Positions 320 to 8,278 of a stretch of 8,278 bases of DNA are shown piece by piece. The notes below the pieces were generated by a model. It made no database searches. It worked only from the letters and a program-made list of their open reading frames with translations, and was not told the DNA's origin. The stretch comes from Naegleria gruberi (lineage: Eukaryota), in NCBI GenBank assembly GCA_000004985.1, contig GG739076.1, one strand, 5' to 3'. How positions within the stretch are numbered: position 1 is the first letter of the stretch; each line of letters opens with the position of its first letter. The translations under genes and the position numbers were made by a program.

Positions 320-550
320 AAAAAATGGCAAAACAAGGTCCCTTCTTTTTTCATAAACAAAATAACAAAATATTAAGCACGAATATAGCGATACTAGATG
401 GAACAGAAATACAAATTAATTTTTCTTCCATCAAATTTTACTTTAACAAAACAAAGTATTATTTTAGGATTAAATTATTAATTAATTGTAAACCGCTTAA
501 ACAATATCAAATTGGATTACCAAAATGGATTATTATATGCATAGAATTAG
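320..550 (+). repeat. Copy A, the left arm, of a diverged inverted-repeat pair of about 230 bp.
   Basis: The reverse complement of 1165-1419 aligns to 320-550 by hand. Identity is about 80% over about 215 aligned nt, with 5 indels. It begins with A5-ATGGCAAAACAAG, matching A5-ATGGTAAAACAAG in the rc of copy B. Similarity fades after CAAAATGG (A 522-529, B rc of 1188-1195) and is gone by about 550 in A and about 1165 in B. Confidence 0.7.
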
Positions 551-639
551 TAATGGTAAATGAGATTGGATTAAATTTTTTAGTATTACGATTTAATTTT
601 GATAAGGACGTAATATTTGATTTTTCATATCCTTTATAA
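325..639 (+). CDS. Hypothetical 104-aa ORF. Its first ~68 codons lie in repeat copy A and are paralogous to the head of ORF 962-1414 (-).
   Basis: ORF track. The heads align as MAKQGPFFFHKQNNKILSTNIAILDGTEIQINFSSIKFYFNKT... versus MVKQVSYFWQKQNNKLSNTNPTILLDGKEIQINYTSIKFHYFNKT.... A stop-free run of this length is rare at about 27% GC. Substitutions between the copies show no third-position excess, so protein-level constraint is not demonstrated. Confidence 0.2.
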   Translation: MAKQGPFFFHKQNNKILSTNIAILDGTEIQINFSSIKFYFNKTKYYFRIKLLINCKPLKQYQIGLPKWIIICIELVMVNEIGLNFLVLRFNFDKDVIFDFSYPL

Positions 640-866
640 TATTTCCATTTACAAAATCTGTAAATTCATTTTCTTTTCTTAATAAATTAAATGCATCACT
701 AGATTTAGGATGCACTGTTTTTCCTTTTGCACTTTTTATCAATTTCCAATAAATCTATAATCTAACAAGCCAACCCTGGTATGTATATTCTAATATTATT
801 AATTTATTTAACACAATTAATTACAATAAACAATCTAATGTTTCATTTGTGTACAATGAGAAGGTA

Positions 867-1133
867 ATGATCATGTACATAAATGTCTCAAAGGAAAAGA
901 ATAAGTTGAAAAAACTTGTTACTAATGAAGAACACGTCACCTTCTTCAAGATTTCCAAATCTCAGACACAAATCAACAAAGCTGATATCTTTGGAAATTT
1001 AAAACAAATTTCCAGATTTGTGTTTAATGAAGAGCAAGAGAAAAGAAAGCGAATTGAGATGATAAATAAAATTAATTCATATCCATTAAATAATTGTAAT
1101 ATTTGTAAATATAAAATTTTAAAGTTCAAGTAA
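867..1133 (+). CDS. Hypothetical small Lys/Glu-rich protein of 88 aa from the first ATG. The ORF track starts at GTG 849, which is not a eukaryotic start.
   Basis: The ORF is open 849-1133 and ends at TAA 1131-1133. Codon usage is yeast-like (AAG, TTG, ACT, GCT, AGA, ATC, TTC). The product is hydrophilic: MIMYINVSKEKNKLKKLVTNEEHVTFFKISKSQTQINKADIFGNLKQISRFVFNEEQEKRKRIEMINKINSYPLNNCNICKYKILKFK. I do not recognise it by homology. Confidence 0.3.
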   Translation: MIMYINVSKEKNKLKKLVTNEEHVTFFKISKSQTQINKADIFGNLKQISRFVFNEEQEKRKRIEMINKINSYPLNNCNICKYKILKFK

Positions 1134-1414
1134 TATGATATTAAAAAAGTAAGAGATTTAAAATAAAAAAATCTATAATGAATATTCCATTTTGATAATC
1201 TAATTTGATGCTGTTTTTTGAATTGTTTAAATGGTTTACAATTAATAAATACTAATTTAATCCTAACATAATTAGTTACTGTTTTGTTAAAGTAGTGAAA
1301 TTTGATAGAAGTATAATTAATTTGTATTTCTTTTCCATCCAGTAATATTGTTGGATTGGTGTTTGATAATTTGTTATTTTGTTTCTGCCAAAAGTAAGAA
1401 ACTTGTTTTACCAT
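962..1414 (-). CDS. Hypothetical 150-aa ORF. The first ~76 codons (about 1187-1414) lie in repeat copy B and match ORF 325-639. The distal part (962-1133) is antisense to the K/E-rich + ORF and is probably a fortuitously open antisense frame.
   Basis: ORF track. The tail is hydrophobic F/L/I/Y-rich, typical of antisense translation of AAR/GAR-rich coding sequence. Confidence 0.15.
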   Translation of the reverse strand: MVKQVSYFWQKQNNKLSNTNPTILLDGKEIQINYTSIKFHYFNKTVTNYVRIKLVFINCKPFKQFKKQHQIRLSKWNIHYRFFYFKSLTFLISYYLNFKILYLQILQLFNGYELILFIISIRFLFSCSSLNTNLEICFKFPKISALLICV

Positions 1415-1419
1415 TTTTT
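1165..1419 (-). repeat. Copy B, the right arm, of the same inverted-repeat pair, in reverse-complement orientation.
   Basis: Same alignment as the previous feature. The outer boundary is sharp at the A5-ATGG motif (1411-1419). Flanking sequence beyond 1419 does not match the sequence left of 320. Confidence 0.7.
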
Positions 1420-1810: not shown

Positions 1811-4800
1811 NNNNNNNNNNNNNNNNNNNNNNNNNNNNNNNNNNNNNNNNNNNNNNNNNNNNNNNNNNNNNNNNNNNNNNNNNNNNNNNNNNNNNNNNNN
1901 NNNNNNNNNNNNNNNNNNNNNNNNNNNNNNNNNNNNNNNNNNNNNNNNNNNNNNNNNNNNNNNNNNNNNNNNNNNNNNNNNNNNNNNNNNNNNNNNNNNN
2001 NNNNNNNNNNNNNNNNNNNNNNNNNNNNNNNNNNNNNNNNNNNNNNNNNNNNNNNNNNNNNNNNNNNNNNNNNNNNNNNNNNNNNNNNNNNNNNNNNNNN
2101 NNNNNNNNNNNNNNNNNNNNNNNNNNNNNNNNNNNNNNNNNNNNNNNNNNNNNNNNNNNNNNNNNNNNNNNNNNNNNNNNNNNNNNNNNNNNNNNNNNNN
2201 NNNNNNNNNNNNNNNNNNNNNNNNNNNNNNNNNNNNNNNNNNNNNNNNNNNNNNNNNNNNNNNNNNNNNNNNNNNNNNNNNNNNNNNNNNNNNNNNNNNN
2301 NNNNNNNNNNNNNNNNNNNNNNNNNNNNNNNNNNNNNNNNNNNNNNNNNNNNNNNNNNNNNNNNNNNNNNNNNNNNNNNNNNNNNNNNNNNNNNNNNNNN
2401 NNNNNNNNNNNNNNNNNNNNNNNNNNNNNNNNNNNNNNNNNNNNNNNNNNNNNNNNNNNNNNNNNNNNNNNNNNNNNNNNNNNNNNNNNNNNNNNNNNNN
2501 NNNNNNNNNNNNNNNNNNNNNNNNNNNNNNNNNNNNNNNNNNNNNNNNNNNNNNNNNNNNNNNNNNNNNNNNNNNNNNNNNNNNNNNNNNNNNNNNNNNN
2601 NNNNNNNNNNNNNNNNNNNNNNNNNNNNNNNNNNNNNNNNNNNNNNNNNNNNNNNNNNNNNNNNNNNNNNNNNNNNNNNNNNNNNNNNNNNNNNNNNNNN
2701 NNNNNNNNNNNNNNNNNNNNNNNNNNNNNNNNNNNNNNNNNNNNNNNNNNNNNNNNNNNNNNNNNNNNNNNNNNNNNNNNNNNNNNNNNNNNNNNNNNNN
2801 NNNNNNNNNNNNNNNNNNNNNNNNNNNNNNNNNNNNNNNNNNNNNNNNNNNNNNNNNNNNNNNNNNNNNNNNNNNNNNNNNNNNNNNNNNNNNNNNNNNN
2901 NNNNNNNNNNNNNNNNNNNNNNNNNNNNNNNNNNNNNNNNNNNNNNNNNNNNNNNNNNNNNNNNNNNNNNNNNNNNNNNNNNNNNNNNNNNNNNNNNNNN
3001 NNNNNNNNNNNNNNNNNNNNNNNNNNNNNNNNNNNNNNNNNNNNNNNNNNNNNNNNNNNNNNNNNNNNNNNNNNNNNNNNNNNNNNNNNNNNNNNNNNNN
3101 NNNNNNNNNNNNNNNNNNNNNNNNNNNNNNNNNNNNNNNNNNNNNNNNNNNNNNNNNNNNNNNNNNNNNNNNNNNNNNNNNNNNNNNNNNNNNNNNNNNN
3201 NNNNNNNNNNNNNNNNNNNNNNNNNNNNNNNNNNNNNNNNNNNNNNNNNNNNNNNNNNNNNNNNNNNNNNNNNNNNNNNNNNNNNNNNNNNNNNNNNNNN
3301 NNNNNNNNNNNNNNNNNNNNNNNNNNNNNNNNNNNNNNNNNNNNNNNNNNNNNNNNNNNNNNNNNNNNNNNNNNNNNNNNNNNNNNNNNNNNNNNNNNNN
3401 NNNNNNNNNNNNNNNNNNNNNNNNNNNNNNNNNNNNNNNNNNNNNNNNNNNNNNNNNNNNNNNNNNNNNNNNNNNNNNNNNNNNNNNNNNNNNNNNNNNN
3501 NNNNNNNNNNNNNNNNNNNNNNNNNNNNNNNNNNNNNNNNNNNNNNNNNNNNNNNNNNNNNNNNNNNNNNNNNNNNNNNNNNNNNNNNNNNNNNNNNNNN
3601 NNNNNNNNNNNNNNNNNNNNNNNNNNNNNNNNNNNNNNNNNNNNNNNNNNNNNNNNNNNNNNNNNNNNNNNNNNNNNNNNNNNNNNNNNNNNNNNNNNNN
3701 NNNNNNNNNNNNNNNNNNNNNNNNNNNNNNNNNNNNNNNNNNNNNNNNNNNNNNNNNNNNNNNNNNNNNNNNNNNNNNNNNNNNNNNNNNNNNNNNNNNN
3801 NNNNNNNNNNNNNNNNNNNNNNNNNNNNNNNNNNNNNNNNNNNNNNNNNNNNNNNNNNNNNNNNNNNNNNNNNNNNNNNNNNNNNNNNNNNNNNNNNNNN
3901 NNNNNNNNNNNNNNNNNNNNNNNNNNNNNNNNNNNNNNNNNNNNNNNNNNNNNNNNNNNNNNNNNNNNNNNNNNNNNNNNNNNNNNNNNNNNNNNNNNNN
4001 NNNNNNNNNNNNNNNNNNNNNNNNNNNNNNNNNNNNNNNNNNNNNNNNNNNNNNNNNNNNNNNNNNNNNNNNNNNNNNNNNNNNNNNNNNNNNNNNNNNN
4101 NNNNNNNNNNNNNNNNNNNNNNNNNNNNNNNNNNNNNNNNNNNNNNNNNNNNNNNNNNNNNNNNNNNNNNNNNNNNNNNNNNNNNNNNNNNNNNNNNNNN
4201 NNNNNNNNNNNNNNNNNNNNNNNNNNNNNNNNNNNNNNNNNNNNNNNNNNNNNNNNNNNNNNNNNNNNNNNNNNNNNNNNNNNNNNNNNNNNNNNNNNNN
4301 NNNNNNNNNNNNNNNNNNNNNNNNNNNNNNNNNNNNNNNNNNNNNNNNNNNNNNNNNNNNNNNNNNNNNNNNNNNNNNNNNNNNNNNNNNNNNNNNNNNN
4401 NNNNNNNNNNNNNNNNNNNNNNNNNNNNNNNNNNNNNNNNNNNNNNNNNNNNNNNNNNNNNNNNNNNNNNNNNNNNNNNNNNNNNNNNNNNNNNNNNNNN
4501 NNNNNNNNNNNNNNNNNNNNNNNNNNNNNNNNNNNNNNNNNNNNNNNNNNNNNNNNNNNNNNNNNNNNNNNNNNNNNNNNNNNNNNNNNNNNNNNNNNNN
4601 NNNNNNNNNNNNNNNNNNNNNNNNNNNNNNNNNNNNNNNNNNNNNNNNNNNNNNNNNNNNNNNNNNNNNNNNNNNNNNNNNNNNNNNNNNNNNNNNNNNN
4701 NNNNNNNNNNNNNNNNNNNNNNNNNNNNNNNNNNNNNNNNNNNNNNNNNNNNNNNNNNNNNNNNNNNNNNNNNNNNNNNNNNNNNNNNNNNNNNNNNNNN

Positions 4801-7059
4801 NNNNNNNNNNNNNNNNNNNNNNNNNNNNNNNNNNNNNNNNNNNNNNNNNNNNNNNNNNNNNNNNNNNNNNNNNNNNNNNNNNNNNNNNNNNNNNNNNNNN
4901 NNNNNNNNNNNNNNNNNNNNNNNNNNNNNNNNNNNNNNNNNNNNNNNNNNNNNNNNNNNNNNNNNNNNNNNNNNNNNNNNNNNNNNNNNNNNNNNNNNNN
5001 NNNNNNNNNNNNNNNNNNNNNNNNNNNNNNNNNNNNNNNNNNNNNNNNNNNNNNNNNNNNNNNNNNNNNNNNNNNNNNNNNNNNNNNNNNNNNNNNNNNN
5101 NNNNNNNNNNNNNNNNNNNNNNNNNNNNNNNNNNNNNNNNNNNNNNNNNNNNNNNNNNNNNNNNNNNNNNNNNNNNNNNNNNNNNNNNNNNNNNNNNNNN
5201 NNNNNNNNNNNNNNNNNNNNNNNNNNNNNNNNNNNNNNNNNNNNNNNNNNNNNNNNNNNNNNNNNNNNNNNNNNNNNNNNNNNNNNNNNNNNNNNNNNNN
5301 NNNNNNNNNNNNNNNNNNNNNNNNNNNNNNNNNNNNNNNNNNNNNNNNNNNNNNNNNNNNNNNNNNNNNNNNNNNNNNNNNNNNNNNNNNNNNNNNNNNN
5401 NNNNNNNNNNNNNNNNNNNNNNNNNNNNNNNNNNNNNNNNNNNNNNNNNNNNNNNNNNNNNNNNNNNNNNNNNNNNNNNNNNNNNNNNNNNNNNNNNNNN
5501 NNNNNNNNNNNNNNNNNNNNNNNNNNNNNNNNNNNNNNNNNNNNNNNNNNNNNNNNNNNNNNNNNNNNNNNNNNNNNNNNNNNNNNNNNNNNNNNNNNNN
5601 NNNNNNNNNNNNNNNNNNNNNNNNNNNNNNNNNNNNNNNNNNNNNNNNNNNNNNNNNNNNNNNNNNNNNNNNNNNNNNNNNNNNNNNNNNNNNNNNNNNN
5701 NNNNNNNNNNNNNNNNNNNNNNNNNNNNNNNNNNNNNNNNNNNNNNNNNNNNNNNNNNNNNNNNNNNNNNNNNNNNNNNNNNNNNNNNNNNNNNNNNNNN
5801 NNNNNNNNNNNNNNNNNNNNNNNNNNNNNNNNNNNNNNNNNNNNNNNNNNNNNNNNNNNNNNNNNNNNNNNNNNNNNNNNNNNNNNNNNNNNNNNNNNNN
5901 NNNNNNNNNNNNNNNNNNNNNNNNNNNNNNNNNNNNNNNNNNNNNNNNNNNNNNNNNNNNNNNNNNNNNNNNNNNNNNNNNNNNNNNNNNNNNNNNNNNN
6001 NNNNNNNNNNNNNNNNNNNNNNNNNNNNNNNNNNNNNNNNNNNNNNNNNNNNNNNNNNNNNNNNNNNNNNNNNNNNNNNNNNNNNNNNNNNNNNNNNNNN
6101 NNNNNNNNNNNNNNNNNNNNNNNNNNNNNNNNNNNNNNNNNNNNNNNNNNNNNNNNNNNNNNNNNNNNNNNNNNNNNNNNNNNNNNNNNNNNNNNNNNNN
6201 NNNNNNNNNNNNNNNNNNNNNNNNNNNNNNNNNNNNNNNNNNNNNNNNNNNNNNNNNNNNNNNNNNNNNNNNNNNNNNNNNNNNNNNNNNNNNNNNNNNN
6301 NNNNNNNNNNNNNNNNNNNNNNNNNNNNNNNNNNNNNNNNNNNNNNNNNNNNNNNNNNNNNNNNNNNNNNNNNNNNNNNNNNNNNNNNNNNNNNNNNNNN
6401 NNNNNNNNNNNNNNNNNNNNNNNNNNNNNNNNNNNNNNNNNNNNNNNNNNNNNNNNNNNNNNNNNNNNNNNNNNNNNNNNNNNNNNNNNNNNNNNNNNNN
6501 NNNNNNNNNNNNNNNNNNNNNNNNNNNNNNNNNNNNNNNNNNNNNNNNNNNNNNNNNNNNNNNNNNNNNNNNNNNNNNNNNNNNNNNNNNNNNNNNNNNN
6601 NNNNNNNNNNNNNNNNNNNNNNNNNNNNNNNNNNNNNNNNNNNNNNNNNNNNNNNNNNNNNNNNNNNNNNNNNNNNNNNNNNNNNNNNNNNNNNNNNNNN
6701 NNNNNNNNNNNNNNNNNNNNNNNNNNNNNNNNNNNNNNNNNNNNNNNNNNNNNNNNNNNNNNNNNNNNNNNNNNNNNNNNNNNNNNNNNNNNNNNNNNNN
6801 NNNNNNNNNNNNNNNNNNNNNNNNNNNNNNNNNNNNNNNNNNNNNNNNNNNNNNNNNNNNNNNNNNNNNNNNNNNNNNNNNNNNNNNNNNNNNNNNNNNN
6901 NNNNNNNNNNNNNNNNNNNNNNNNNNNNNNNNNNNNNNNNNNNNNNNNNNNNNNNNNNNNNNNNNNNNNNNNNNNNNNNNNNNNNNNNNNNNNNNNNNNN
7001 NNNNNNNNNNNNNNNNNNNNNNNNNNNNNNNNNNNNNNNNNNNNNNNNNNNNNNNNNNN
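1811..7059. other. Run of 5,249 N. It is an assembly gap of estimated size or masked sequence, and nothing in it can be interpreted.
   Basis: Read directly. All ORF-track entries that cross it (1665-7070 +, 1775-7351 +, 1697-7141 -, 1726-7083 -) are poly-X artefacts. Confidence 1.
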
Positions 7060-7060
7060 C

Positions 7061-7351
7061 GGAAGAGTAACTTGCTTGCTCAATAGAAAGATGGAAACTG
7101 AATTGGCAAAGGCAATTCAATATGCCATGGTAACCAATCAACCACTCACAACCATTAACGTGGAGAATGCCTCAGAAAATCTTGAAAGAATGAAGGGTGA
7201 ACAAGCAAGAAAACGACAATTGAGAAGAAATTCCTACGAGAAGAGATTTAGAAATTCTAGAAGTGATAATAACAATTATTACCAAAAGGGTCCAATCAGT
7301 ATTAACAATCCAAATAGAATGTCCAAGCTCTCTAATAAAAAGAATTACTAA
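7061..7351 (+). CDS. 3' end of a protein-coding gene, the last 97 codons (...GRVTCLLNRKMETELAKAIQYAMVTNQPLTTINVENASENLERMKGEQARKRQLRRNSYEKRFRNSRSDNNNYYQKGPISINNPNRMSKLSNKKNY*). It is partial. The basic C-terminal tail has a bipartite-NLS-like KR-x10-KRFR arrangement.
   Basis: The frame is open from the gap edge to TAA 7349-7351. Every Arg codon is AGA except one CGA, and the rest is yeast-style. The product is hydrophilic and protein-like. Product identity is not recognised. Confidence 0.7.
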   Translation, partial: GRVTCLLNRKMETELAKAIQYAMVTNQPLTTINVENASENLERMKGEQARKRQLRRNSYEKRFRNSRSDNNNYYQKGPISINNPNRMSKLSNKKNY

Positions 7352-7460
7352 GCCATTAATAATTTTAATACATTATAGAGAAAGCAATCTAATGTTTTCC
7401 GAATGGTTGTGATTCTTAATACTGATACAGTTGTTGAGACTTCACACTTCCTTAACCATC
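7352..7460 (+). terminator. AT-rich 3' UTR and probable cleavage/polyadenylation region of the upstream gene.
   Basis: AATAAT, TTTAATACATTATAG and similar A/T-rich elements lie immediately after the TAA. This is typical of yeast efficiency/positioning elements. No experimental support. Confidence 0.3.
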
Positions 7461-7519
7461 AAACCGTCAATTACGGACTCTATTAAGGAAACAACATTCC
7501 CGCTAAAAGAACTTGTGCA

Positions 7520-7525
7520 ACGCGT
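7520..7525. promoter_or_regulatory. A single ACGCGT hexamer (MluI cell-cycle box, MCB-like) about 160 bp upstream of ATG 7682.
   Basis: Exact hexamer read from the sequence. MCB is the MBF binding motif of G1/S genes in budding yeasts. One hexamer in a 330-bp spacer has roughly a 5-10% chance of occurring randomly. Confidence 0.2.
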
Positions 7526-7681
7526 GTTTACATTAGAAAGAAGGTTCTCCCGATTTTCCTTAGCACAACGGTGGTTTTTTTTATTACCCATCAAGGCCTG
7601 TCTTACGTGATGTTCAAATGCTGTTGTGGTGGTTGAAAATTAATCAAAAAGAAAAACTCTTATTTTTTCTTCGAAGAATTT

Positions 7682-8278
7682 ATGCCCCCACACAATAGTA
7701 GCCGAAGAGATAGTATTACATCGAATCGGGGCTCGCCAATGAGGCCAACCGTCTCCCTCTCCCCTCGACTCTCAATACCATCAGCACATACTATTCAAAT
7801 TCCCTATGATCCCAATGAAACTTATAATGTTGTACATATACCGACTCAAATAGCCCTCTCTCCTCGTTCTGATCATTCTTTAAGAAATTCGTTACACGCC
7901 TCTACACTTCGTGCCTCAATGAATAATAATAATAATAATACACTTCGATCATCAATGAATGGAACCAATACGCTGAGAACATCAATGCAAGGAGGAAATA
8001 CAATGCTCTCTCGATCGATGGATCTACAACAACAACAACCAATTAGCTATGTTAGTAGCAATAATAATGTTATTCTAACTTCCAGAATGGACACAAATAC
8101 ATTCAGAAGAAATTCTGGAACCTCCGAAGATGAAGTTATCTATGTAGATAAACCTCTCGTAATGACAACAACAACAACCACCAACACTCCGTCCTTAATT
8201 CTCTCACCAAATTCTGTTAGTGTTGGAAATGTAAGCGATTTTTCTGGAGAAAGACAAGTAAGGAGAGTTACTTCGATA
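7682..8278 (+). CDS. N-terminal 199 codons of a Ser/Thr/Asn-rich low-complexity protein, probably intrinsically disordered and regulatory. It runs off the window end. It does not appear in the ORF track, presumably because it has no stop inside the window.
   Basis: In-frame stop TGA 7634-7636 is followed by the first ATG at 7682, and the frame stays open to 8278, exactly 199 codons. The translation is MPPHNSSRRDSITSNRGSPMRPTVSLSPRLSIPSAHTIQIPYDPNETYNVVHIPTQIALSPRSDHSLRNSLHASTLRASMNNNNNNTLRSSMNGTNTLRTSMQGGNTMLSRSMDLQQQQPISYVSSNNNVILTSRMDTNTFRRNSGTSEDEVIYVDKPLVMTTTTTTNTPSLILSPNSVSVGNVSDFSGERQVRRVTSI.... The -3 position is T rather than A, so the true start could be elsewhere. Confidence 0.6.
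   Translation, partial: MPPHNSSRRDSITSNRGSPMRPTVSLSPRLSIPSAHTIQIPYDPNETYNVVHIPTQIALSPRSDHSLRNSLHASTLRASMNNNNNNTLRSSMNGTNTLRTSMQGGNTMLSRSMDLQQQQPISYVSSNNNVILTSRMDTNTFRRNSGTSEDEVIYVDKPLVMTTTTTTNTPSLILSPNSVSVGNVSDFSGERQVRRVTSI
7922..7939 (+). repeat. (AAT)6 trinucleotide repeat, in frame, encoding N6.
   Basis: Read directly. It is codon-aligned with the 7682 ORF. Confidence 0.9.
8027..8038 (+). repeat. (CAA)4, in frame, encoding Q4.
   Basis: Read directly. Confidence 0.9.
8165..8182 (+). repeat. (ACA)4(ACC)2, in frame, encoding T6.
   Basis: Read directly. Confidence 0.9.

Follow-up and report, generated by a model that had tools for sequence, protein, structure and literature searches.

The inverted repeat at positions 320-1419 of the window, the 8,278-nucleotide stretch of DNA analysed here, carries two open reading frames (ORFs) that converge upon each other and share their beginning. 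With a probability of roughly 0.55, we consider them two small, basic and lineage-restricted ORFs in convergent orientation, derived from partial inverted duplication or from a gene-conversion tract. One module of about 215-240 bp would be common to both, made up of 5 nt before the ATG and the first 68 (ORF A) or 76 (ORF B) codons. We call these codons heads and the remainder of each ORF its tail. The features of the region are as follows.

320-534, plus strand: arm A, an A-run of 5 nt, the ATG at 325 and 68 codons as far as ...LPKW at 528, then a few bases of fading similarity
1181-1419, minus strand: arm B, the same module, with the ATG at 1414 and 76 codons as far as ...LSKW at 1187
320-396/1343-1419, 392-442/1294-1344, 458-484/1246-1272, 476-505/1222-1251 and 499-534/1181-1216: ungapped arm pairs (arm A/arm B)
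325-639, plus strand: ORF A, 104 codons, with a conserved basic head (codons 1-68, pI 10.0) and a non-conserved, T-rich hydrophobic tail (codons 69-104)
962-1414, minus strand: ORF B, 150 codons, with a conserved basic head (codons 1-76, pI 10.2) and a T-rich hydrophobic tail unrelated to that of ORF A
849-1133, plus strand: middle ORF, 94 codons from the GTG at 849 or 88 from the ATG at 867, A-rich and period-3 positive
550-860, plus strand: hypothetical intron between head A and the middle ORF, with donor GTAATG at 550 (or GTAAAT at 556), CTAAT at about 835 and AG at 859-860
1420-1733, no strand: non-coding spacer separating the minus-strand start of ORF B from the ATG (1734) of an ORF running into the masked stretch

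Self-comparison with a program of the find_repeats type resolved the repeat into five collinear ungapped arm pairs of 78-90% complementarity. Blastn of positions 1-1810 against themselves aligned 320-533 with 1195-1419 at E 1.4e-41, all remaining self-matches having E of at least 0.003. The inverted repeat of about 80% identity, claimed for 320-1419 in a preliminary description of this DNA, is thus real. Compared arm against arm, the copies are 78-84% identical (blastn E 1e-41 to 1e-50). In the left, unmasked part of the window no other self-similarity is significant; when each unit was run by blastn against the entire window, no third copy of the arm appeared in its unmasked sequence, and six-frame tblastn of the region against itself found no second pair of paralogous exons. 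The block of similarity is sharp-edged on both its outer and its inner side. In both copies the homology begins 5 nt ahead of the ATG, in the start context AAAAAATGG. The starts and outer ends of the arms were correctly placed before, whereas the inner ends, put at 550 and 1165, have to be moved, as clear homology stops at about 534 and 1181. The flanks of the two arms, compared so as to tell a discrete copied block from an old duplication limited by selection, are unrelated to each other: their residual similarity corresponds to z of -0.4 to +0.6, compared with z of 25 for the arms, and the region upstream of A has no similarity to 1420-1733. Because only 5 nt upstream of the ATG are shared and the flanks are unrelated, at least one copy would have been made without a promoter. 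A full palindrome centred near 870 was ruled out, its inner halves being unrelated.

Adding up the coordinates within each ungapped pair gives 1739, 1736, 1730, 1727 and 1715, so that the offset between successive segments changes by 3, 6, 3 and 12 nt, in the output of a repeat finder that is blind to codons. All indels are thus multiples of 3, as had been proposed, and their number is four if the 6-nt step presents one event, or five as in the earlier hand alignment. Every one of them lengthens copy B, and arm B exceeds arm A by 24 nt. MAFFT and protein alignments concur on the indels, with the 12-nt gap mis-placed by MAFFT.

Only one of the six frames in each copy is free of stops, and it is the same homologous frame in A and B; the other five contain 3-12 stops. 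Despite about 16% divergence in the aligned codons (nucleotide identity over the 68 codons is 84%), neither copy has suffered a frameshift, a stop or the loss of its ATG, and the heads are 61% identical across 68/76 residues (E 8e-22). According to a Markov-1 model of the block, 0.0026 ATG-initiated ORFs of at least 104 codons are expected per 1.1 kb and two are observed, which supports the earlier view that ORFs of 104 and 150 codons are unexpected here. Their whole length is only partly evidence for a family, because the T-rich tails past codon 68/76 show neither conservation nor relationship to each other, and the tail of ORF B runs antisense over 962-1133 to the middle ORF, which has the better coding statistics. 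The probability that any frame is open over a 226-nt unit of such composition is 0.008. After 32 random substitutions of the observed types, a frame stays stop-free with a probability of 0.04-0.09 (0.04-0.05 if survival of the ATG is also required), and the probability that all of 4-5 indels are multiples of 3 is about 0.004-0.012. Neutral decay is therefore unlikely, and the preserved frame points to a constraint of the coding type, as the preliminary description had argued.

Protein-level constraint on the heads is weak. The dN/dS ratio between A and B is 0.70, a value based on only 37 synonymous sites (dS about 0.24), and the 22 amino-acid differences observed equal the 22.0 expected neutrally; ordinary purifying selection is not visible, in agreement with the previous reading. 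Differences fall on codon positions 1, 2 and 3 in numbers of 11, 11 and 10. This recount replaces the former counts of 13, 10 and 8 and leaves the qualitative picture of evenly spread substitutions as it was. Compared with random change, the replacements are on the conservative side, with a BLOSUM62 sum of -2 instead of -14 to -18 (P 0.012-0.053). The period-3 power of both heads lies below that of about 97% of shuffles, while the real genes of the window and the middle ORF do have a period-3 signal; P was 0.000 for the gene at 7682-8278, 0.037 for the middle ORF and 0.069 for 7070-7348. G+C content is 23-25% in the heads and 20-26% in the block, not about 27% as previously given, and reaches 31% in the left flank and 35-39% in neighbouring coding sequence. 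Three of these observations are new with respect to the preliminary description: the conservative replacements, which favour translation, and the unusually low period-3 and the sharp edges with unrelated flanks, which complicate the picture.

The earlier proposal to search databases with heads and arms yielded no relatives in protein, Pfam, PDB, genome, metagenome, virus, plasmid or phage sets. Head A had no match in Pfam and ORF B only sub-threshold ones (E 0.12-0.19). A word-indexed search of 5.8e9 proteins with the heads returned nothing at E of 10 or below, an HMMER profile search of 1.84e9 representative proteins no credible homologue, and comparison with the PDB matches with E of at least 1.6. 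The lone profile match to the heads, P0001, is spurious, being a translated tandem repeat in which eight weak stretches were summed. Scans of genome, metagenome and viral contigs with back-translated patterns gave no confirmed relative of the heads, and a 42-nt pattern common to both arms had 0 matches in genome and metagenome contigs, collections that do not include the source genome. Neither plasmid tblastn nor phage blastn detected the arms or heads. None of the exact products of ORF A, ORF B, the middle ORF and the ORF at 1480-1650 is on record as a called gene, and the 93-aa C terminus of the ORF that emerges from the masked stretch had no match among proteins. AF2 modelled the heads with pLDDT 37.5, drawing strands in a model of low confidence. 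Over positions 1-1810, Rfam gave only sub-threshold hits (SNORD78 with 27.4 vs 38 bits, SNORD79 with 23.5 vs 47 bits), and no tRNA was found. Literature searches on dictyostelid transposons and on inverted duplications turned up nothing specific to the element. An insertion of mitochondrial DNA was ruled out, as conserved tryptophans are encoded by TGG and the matches include no organellar protein.

We propose that just a 5' piece of coding sequence was copied, either by a partial inverted duplication on the spot or as a gene-conversion tract involving paralogues of older date. Since no more than this piece was copied, both ORFs would be chimeric, composed of a common N-terminal domain of about 70 residues and of unrelated tails. 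The tails would be read from whatever sequence lies downstream and probably have little or no function. Both heads are probably translated now, or were until very recently, judging from the intact frame, the in-frame indels and the conservative replacements; the same three features suggest selection that is strict on the frame and loose on residues. Such a combination would mark out an orphan protein that is young and evolves fast. For the head, our guess is a small binding domain of basic character. That the copies are inverted probably reflects the way in which the duplication arose and serves no function of its own. Speaking against this explanation are the weak purifying signal, the absent period-3, the low G+C content of the heads, the lack of a homologue and the pLDDT of 37.5; so do the unrelated flanks with a mere 5 nt shared ahead of the ATG, the lack of a splice donor in ORF B and the position of its tail, antisense to a more gene-like ORF.

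The A-rich, period-3-positive middle ORF may be a small gene in its own right or else exon 2 of gene A. Judged from sequence signals, head A may be spliced to it (867-1133) instead of continuing into its own tail: the AG at 859-860 is in phase with the frame of 849, and the hypothetical intron is T-rich. On the strand of ORF B, no GT donor is present between 1187 and 1005. The homologue search with the middle ORF was empty, its similarity to Pfam PF06058 (Dcp1/EVH1) amounts to 15.3-17.7 bits against a cut-off of 22.5 and covers only profile positions 11-67 of 117, and its AF2 model is a single long helix of pLDDT 53, of insufficient quality for a fold search, as is the model of the heads. As to ORF B, the spacer at 1420-1733, whose longest ORF in six-frame translation is 56 aa with no other long one, could serve it as a shared divergent promoter region.

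Of the three candidates named in the preliminary description, a fast-evolving small protein family, of which two members are visible, fits best; a non-coding repeat that kept its frame by coincidence has become unlikely, and a recently dead gene pair may be considered together with a variant in which B alone is dead. In this variant gene A is real, possibly with head A spliced to the middle ORF (861-1133), arm B is a dead, promoter-less partial inverted duplicate, and the 150 codons of ORF B are an accident of antisense reading through the last exon of gene A. The copied block is indeed sharp-edged and reaches just 5 nt upstream of the ATG, the arms differ by substitutions of neutral appearance, and in B no GT donor follows within 180 nt of the end of the homology, whereas A has GTAATG/GTAAAT and an in-phase acceptor into a period-3-positive ORF. 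In addition, if the middle ORF is coding, the frame antisense to it would be open with about 6 times the frequency of a naive estimate (0.033 vs 0.006). We nevertheless hold this variant to be unlikely. A neutral copy should bear indels other than multiples of 3, and all 4-5 are 3n, with none other in either copy; several, mostly non-3n, would be expected to gather, yet the lineage without the 3n indels appears to have taken none. If half of the 32 substitutions occurred in B, the probability of no stop would be about 0.25-0.3 (a square root estimate), which together with 2-5 in-frame indels becomes roughly 0.001-0.03. B has also retained the ATG and start context, the replacements are conservative, and the 314-bp divergent spacer facing B could drive its transcription. 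The death of both copies, that is, a small gene partially duplicated whose heads lost function too lately for disabling mutations to appear, agrees with the dN/dS near 1, the neutral number of amino-acid changes, the missing homologues and codon statistics unlike those of neighbouring genes. It is nonetheless very improbable, as the dS of about 0.24 and the 4-5 indels accrued in the very interval when the frame was kept. Because divergence and indels accumulated while the frame stayed intact, most of the time since copying would have passed under frame constraint.

A different group of explanations places any constraint on nucleotides. The arms could be terminal inverted repeats (TIRs) of a 1.1-kb non-autonomous DNA transposon or foldback element, or a hairpin RNA for small-RNA silencing, the open frames being relics of the gene fragment that gave rise to the arms. 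They do terminate a discrete block of 1100 bp with sharp outer and inner edges, more AT-rich than the left flank and the genes, and the codon-position-blind substitutions without period-3 would fit a constraint, if any, on nucleotides. The likeness to long-TIR non-autonomous DNA transposons (MITE-like or foldback) extends to the arm length of about 220 bp and the lack of a recognisable transposase. However, there is no target-site duplication abutting 320/1419 and no recognisable terminal motif; the sole pair of 11-mers, 316-326/1448-1458, overlaps the arm on the left and lies 29 nt beyond the arm on the right. The internal ORFs match neither a transposase nor any other family, and no further copy was found in the window or in genome, metagenome, viral and phage collections, among which the source genome is not represented. 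Inverted-duplication hairpin loci are known to yield small RNAs in plants and animals (the proto-miRNA/hpRNA model), and the present inverted duplicate of a coding fragment resembles them; its read-through transcript is predicted to form a stem of about 215 bp. In the transcript of 310-1430 the arms pair end to end (MFE -301 kcal/mol), which is expected by construction. Yet a hairpin needs neither in-frame indels nor an open frame, and arms of about 80% identity make poor TIRs or Dicer substrates. A frame-preserved ORF that begins with its start codon at the arm edge, shared by both copies, with in-frame indels only and conservative replacements, is left unexplained; the joint chance is of the order of 1e-5 or less, the separate probabilities being multiplied under the assumption of independence. 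We thus regard a purely non-coding repeat as quite improbable. Even slighter is the prospect that the arms are doubly constrained, as translated heads and as the stem of a functional inverted repeat. Such a stem could be a self-silencing hairpin from convergent read-through or form the ends of a mobile 1.1-kb cassette, and dual constraint would account for codon-position-blind substitutions and absent period-3 alongside a strict frame.

The pair of small basic ORFs favoured here has two classes of known counterparts. Katju and Lynch reportedly found partial and chimeric young gene duplicates in inverted orientation among recent duplicates of C. elegans and human. Features in common with such partial inverted duplicates are the short span, covering part of a coding region, the inverted copies within about 1 kb, the fusion of the new copy to an unrelated flank and the relaxed constraint on the protein. 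Unlike in those, both frames are kept here through about 16% divergence and 4-5 indels, survival is longer than usually expected of a promoter-less copy, and the parent family has no detectable relatives. The second class, lineage-specific (orphan or possibly de novo) small ORFs of AT-rich eukaryotes, likewise lacks homologues and codon periodicity, has low, non-genic G+C content and low structure confidence, and displays dN/dS near 1 with the ORF intact. Orphan ORFs are usually single, whereas the paralogue present here allows the constraint on the frame to be tested internally.

Should both heads be translated, they would present a clean natural case of a very young or orphan small-protein gene in which the frame is protected and residues are nearly free, and the paralogue would supply an internal control usually missing for orphan ORFs. 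This would be of use in annotating small ORFs in AT-rich eukaryotes and in studying how partial inverted duplicates survive; it would introduce no new molecular mechanism or kind of system and open no long-standing question. Dual constraint, if true, would be unusual: in an AT-rich eukaryote, coding sequence would serve as a structural repeat as well.

Two further features speak for the favoured pair of small genes. The layout suits such a pair, as non-coding DNA of about 320 bp precedes each ATG (1-324 and 1420-1733) and 320 bp separate the stops of the two ORFs. The sense strand of the heads is A-rich, as in the real genes of the window, and switches to T-rich in the tails.

The repeat search of the window joined 320-534 to 1181-1419 by five collinear inverted segments. 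In a self-blastn of positions 1-1810 this pair reached E 1.4e-41, with no other match better than E 0.003, and blastn against the window, of which 1811-7069 is masked, revealed no further copy in the unmasked part. The features concerned are the following:

320-534, + strand: arm A of the inverted repeat
1181-1419, - strand: arm B of the inverted repeat
325-639, + strand: ORF A, whose first 68 codons (325-528) form head A
962-1414, - strand: ORF B, whose first 76 codons (1187-1414) form the homologous head B
849-1133, + strand: middle ORF between the arms, from GTG 849 or ATG 867, A-rich, period-3 positive
1734 to the mask at 1811: ORF from ATG 1734, starting MQPPPRDDSS...
7070-7351: ORF leaving the mask, in a frame different from that of the ORF at 1734

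The ungapped segments have coordinate sums of 1739, 1736, 1730, 1727 and 1715; successive register shifts of 3, 6, 3 and 12 nt follow from these, corresponding to four or five indels. All of them are multiples of three and copy B is longer by every one; MAFFT and two protein alignments gave the same phase. The inverted pair and the in-frame nature of its indels, both claimed in the preliminary description, are thus confirmed. The block of similarity is sharply edged: the arms align with z 25, and the adjoining 200-nt stretches, upstream (z -0.3) and downstream (z +0.6), do not exceed shuffled sequence. As dS between the heads is only ~0.24, flanks of equal age should still be recognisable, and we infer that just the 215-240 bp were copied or converted.

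In each copy exactly one of the six frames is free of stops, and these frames are homologous. The open frame begins with an ATG that lies 5 nt in from the repeat edge (context AAAAAATGG) and extends over 104 codons in ORF A and 150 in ORF B, as previously reported; the heads are 61% identical (E 8e-22). In 1.1 kb, a Markov model of the block predicts 0.0026 ATG-initiated ORFs that reach 104 codons, against two observed, so that their length is unexpected, as had been claimed. For a 226-nt unit of block composition, the probability that any of six frames is open is 0.008. When the 32 observed substitutions were re-dealt to random sites, starting from either head, the stop-free frame survived in only 4-9% of trials, and the probability that four to five independent indels are all multiples of three is at most 0.012-0.004. 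Their product puts neutral decay of a once-coding frame at about 1e-3 to 1e-4, and a repeat without any coding past far below that. That both copies are recently dead is rated as quite improbable. Whichever lineage lacked the in-frame indels would have taken none at all over equal time, and several, mostly out of frame, would be the expectation for a neutral copy.

The reading we prefer, with a probability of about 0.55 as judged from sequence, is a convergent, lineage-restricted pair of small ORFs with a common basic head. A partial inverted duplication or a conversion tract would have given rise to two ORFs sharing a basic head of ~70 residues; both heads would be translated, now or until very recently, selection would act on the frame, and the inverted geometry would be a by-product. 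Among the three candidates proposed earlier, fast-evolving small proteins are thus retained as the best, and a dead gene pair and a non-coding repeat are ranked lower.

Very little selection is visible at the level of residues, in agreement with the preliminary description. The dN/dS ratio of the heads is 0.70 (Nei-Gojobori, from only 37 synonymous sites), their differences are spread evenly over codon positions (11/11/10), and 22 amino acids differ against a neutral expectation of 22.0. Replacements are milder than random (BLOSUM62 sum -2 versus -14 to -18; P 0.012 in one direction and 0.053 in the other). The G+C content of the heads is 23-25%, versus 35-39% in neighbouring genes. Overall, the heads appear protected in frame and nearly free in residues, unlike an established gene of this genome. 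Period-3 power of both heads (325-528 and 1187-1414) lies below ~97% of shuffles; the sequences compared with them are all periodic (gene 7682-8278, P 0.000; ORF ending at 7351, P 0.069; middle ORF, P 0.037). This low periodicity stands against every frame-based test, all of which show the frame kept.

Past codons 68 and 76 the tails of the two ORFs are unrelated. Composition flips there from A-rich to T-rich, and the tails are hydrophobic, as expected from translated T-rich DNA. The tail of ORF B is antisense to the middle ORF over 172 nt; if one of them is coding, the other would be open by chance ~3-4% of the time. AATAAA lies ~30 nt past the middle-ORF stop. The search found no homologues of the middle ORF, its only Pfam match being sub-threshold (DCP1, E 0.004, 17 bits versus a cut-off of 22.5), and its AF2 model is one long helix of low confidence (pLDDT 53.3). 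A match to the C/D-box snoRNA SNORD78 (Rfam) at 862-932 (+) scores 27.4 bits versus a gathering threshold of 38 (E 0.049); no D box (CUGA) was seen in it by eye, and it is probably due to chance.

A two-exon gene A, with head A spliced to the middle ORF, is possible: candidate donors (GTAATG/GTAAAT) lie at 550/556, a CTAAT is present at about 835, and the AG at 859-860 matches the phase of the middle ORF. ORF B contains no GT donor over 180 nt past the end of homology. This missing donor, the sharp repeat edges and the neutral substitution pattern suit an explanation that we consider unlikely though the strongest competitor, in which gene A is real, perhaps spliced in this way, with arm B as its dead copy lacking a promoter. 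Against it speak the exclusively in-frame indels and the retention of both ATG and frame by arm B. Rather less probable is an inverted repeat that does not code for protein, its arms being the TIRs of a transposon or belonging to a hairpin-RNA locus. Geometry, the AT-richness of the block and codon-blind substitution fit such an origin, but it would have to ascribe to coincidence that a start codon sits at the edge of the arms, that one open frame is common to both and that the indels are 3n, no terminal motif is present, no other copies were found, and the target-site duplication that defines a TIR transposon is absent at 320-1419. Least probable, again on sequence grounds, is that the arms are coding and also act as a functional stem or terminal repeat, which would explain strict frame-keeping alongside codon-blind substitution. 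The pair showed none of the tested defining features of any protein or Rfam family either; it comes closest to a partial or chimeric inverted duplicate combined with an orphan small ORF. Partial or chimeric inverted duplicates are common among young duplicates, and orphan small ORFs are typical of AT-rich genomes.

No relatives of the heads were found in Pfam, in PDB, in a word-indexed search of 5.8e9 proteins, or in pattern-plus-tblastn scans of prokaryotic genomes, metagenomes and viral contigs; plasmid and phage collections gave nothing, and a 42-nt pattern shared by the two arms had zero matches in genome and metagenome collections. Look-ups of exact ORF products were likewise negative. 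Full profile search of 1.84e9 representatives returned a single match, rejected because it is a translated tandem repeat whose score adds up eight weak stretches. The AF2 model of the heads has a low confidence of 37.5.

The window is AT-rich, with long non-coding stretches, and its ORFs carry runs of poly-Asn (AAT), poly-Gln (CAA) and poly-Thr (ACA/ACC), features reminiscent of dictyostelid social amoebae or of AT-rich, yeast-like eukaryotes. The repeat pair sits in a region, at least 1.7 kb long, that lacks large genes and precedes the ORF from ATG 1734. About 320 bp of non-coding DNA face the ATG of both ORF A and ORF B, and the spacer 5' of ORF B is shared divergently with the ORF at 1734. 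G+C content is 20-26% in the block (320-1419), 31% in the left flank, 34.5% in the 7352-7681 spacer and 35-39% in neighbouring coding DNA; because the right flank, at 25.7%, does not stand out, these values point only weakly to an inserted island. The ORFs entering and leaving the mask differ in frame, so that 1811-7069 must conceal either an intron or a change of frame, or else several genes. For the ORF ending at 7351, the 93-aa C-terminal part has no relatives in the protein collection. TGTTTTCCGAA at 7389-7399 resembles the CCGAA core of the budding-yeast centromere element CDEIII; neither a CDEI-like motif nor an extremely AT-rich CDEII lies upstream, and the likeness is probably chance. 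Two GGCGCC hexamers, 27 nt apart from start to start (GGCGCCAAGTGGAAATTGTAGTTTTTTGGCGCC), occur at 27-59 in the AT-rich non-coding flank. Three direct repeats of ~22 nt at 7903-7990, spaced by 36 and 30 nt, encode the reiterated peptide TLR[A/S/T]SMN within a Ser/Thr/Asn-rich ORF that begins with ATG 7682 and is still open where the window ends.
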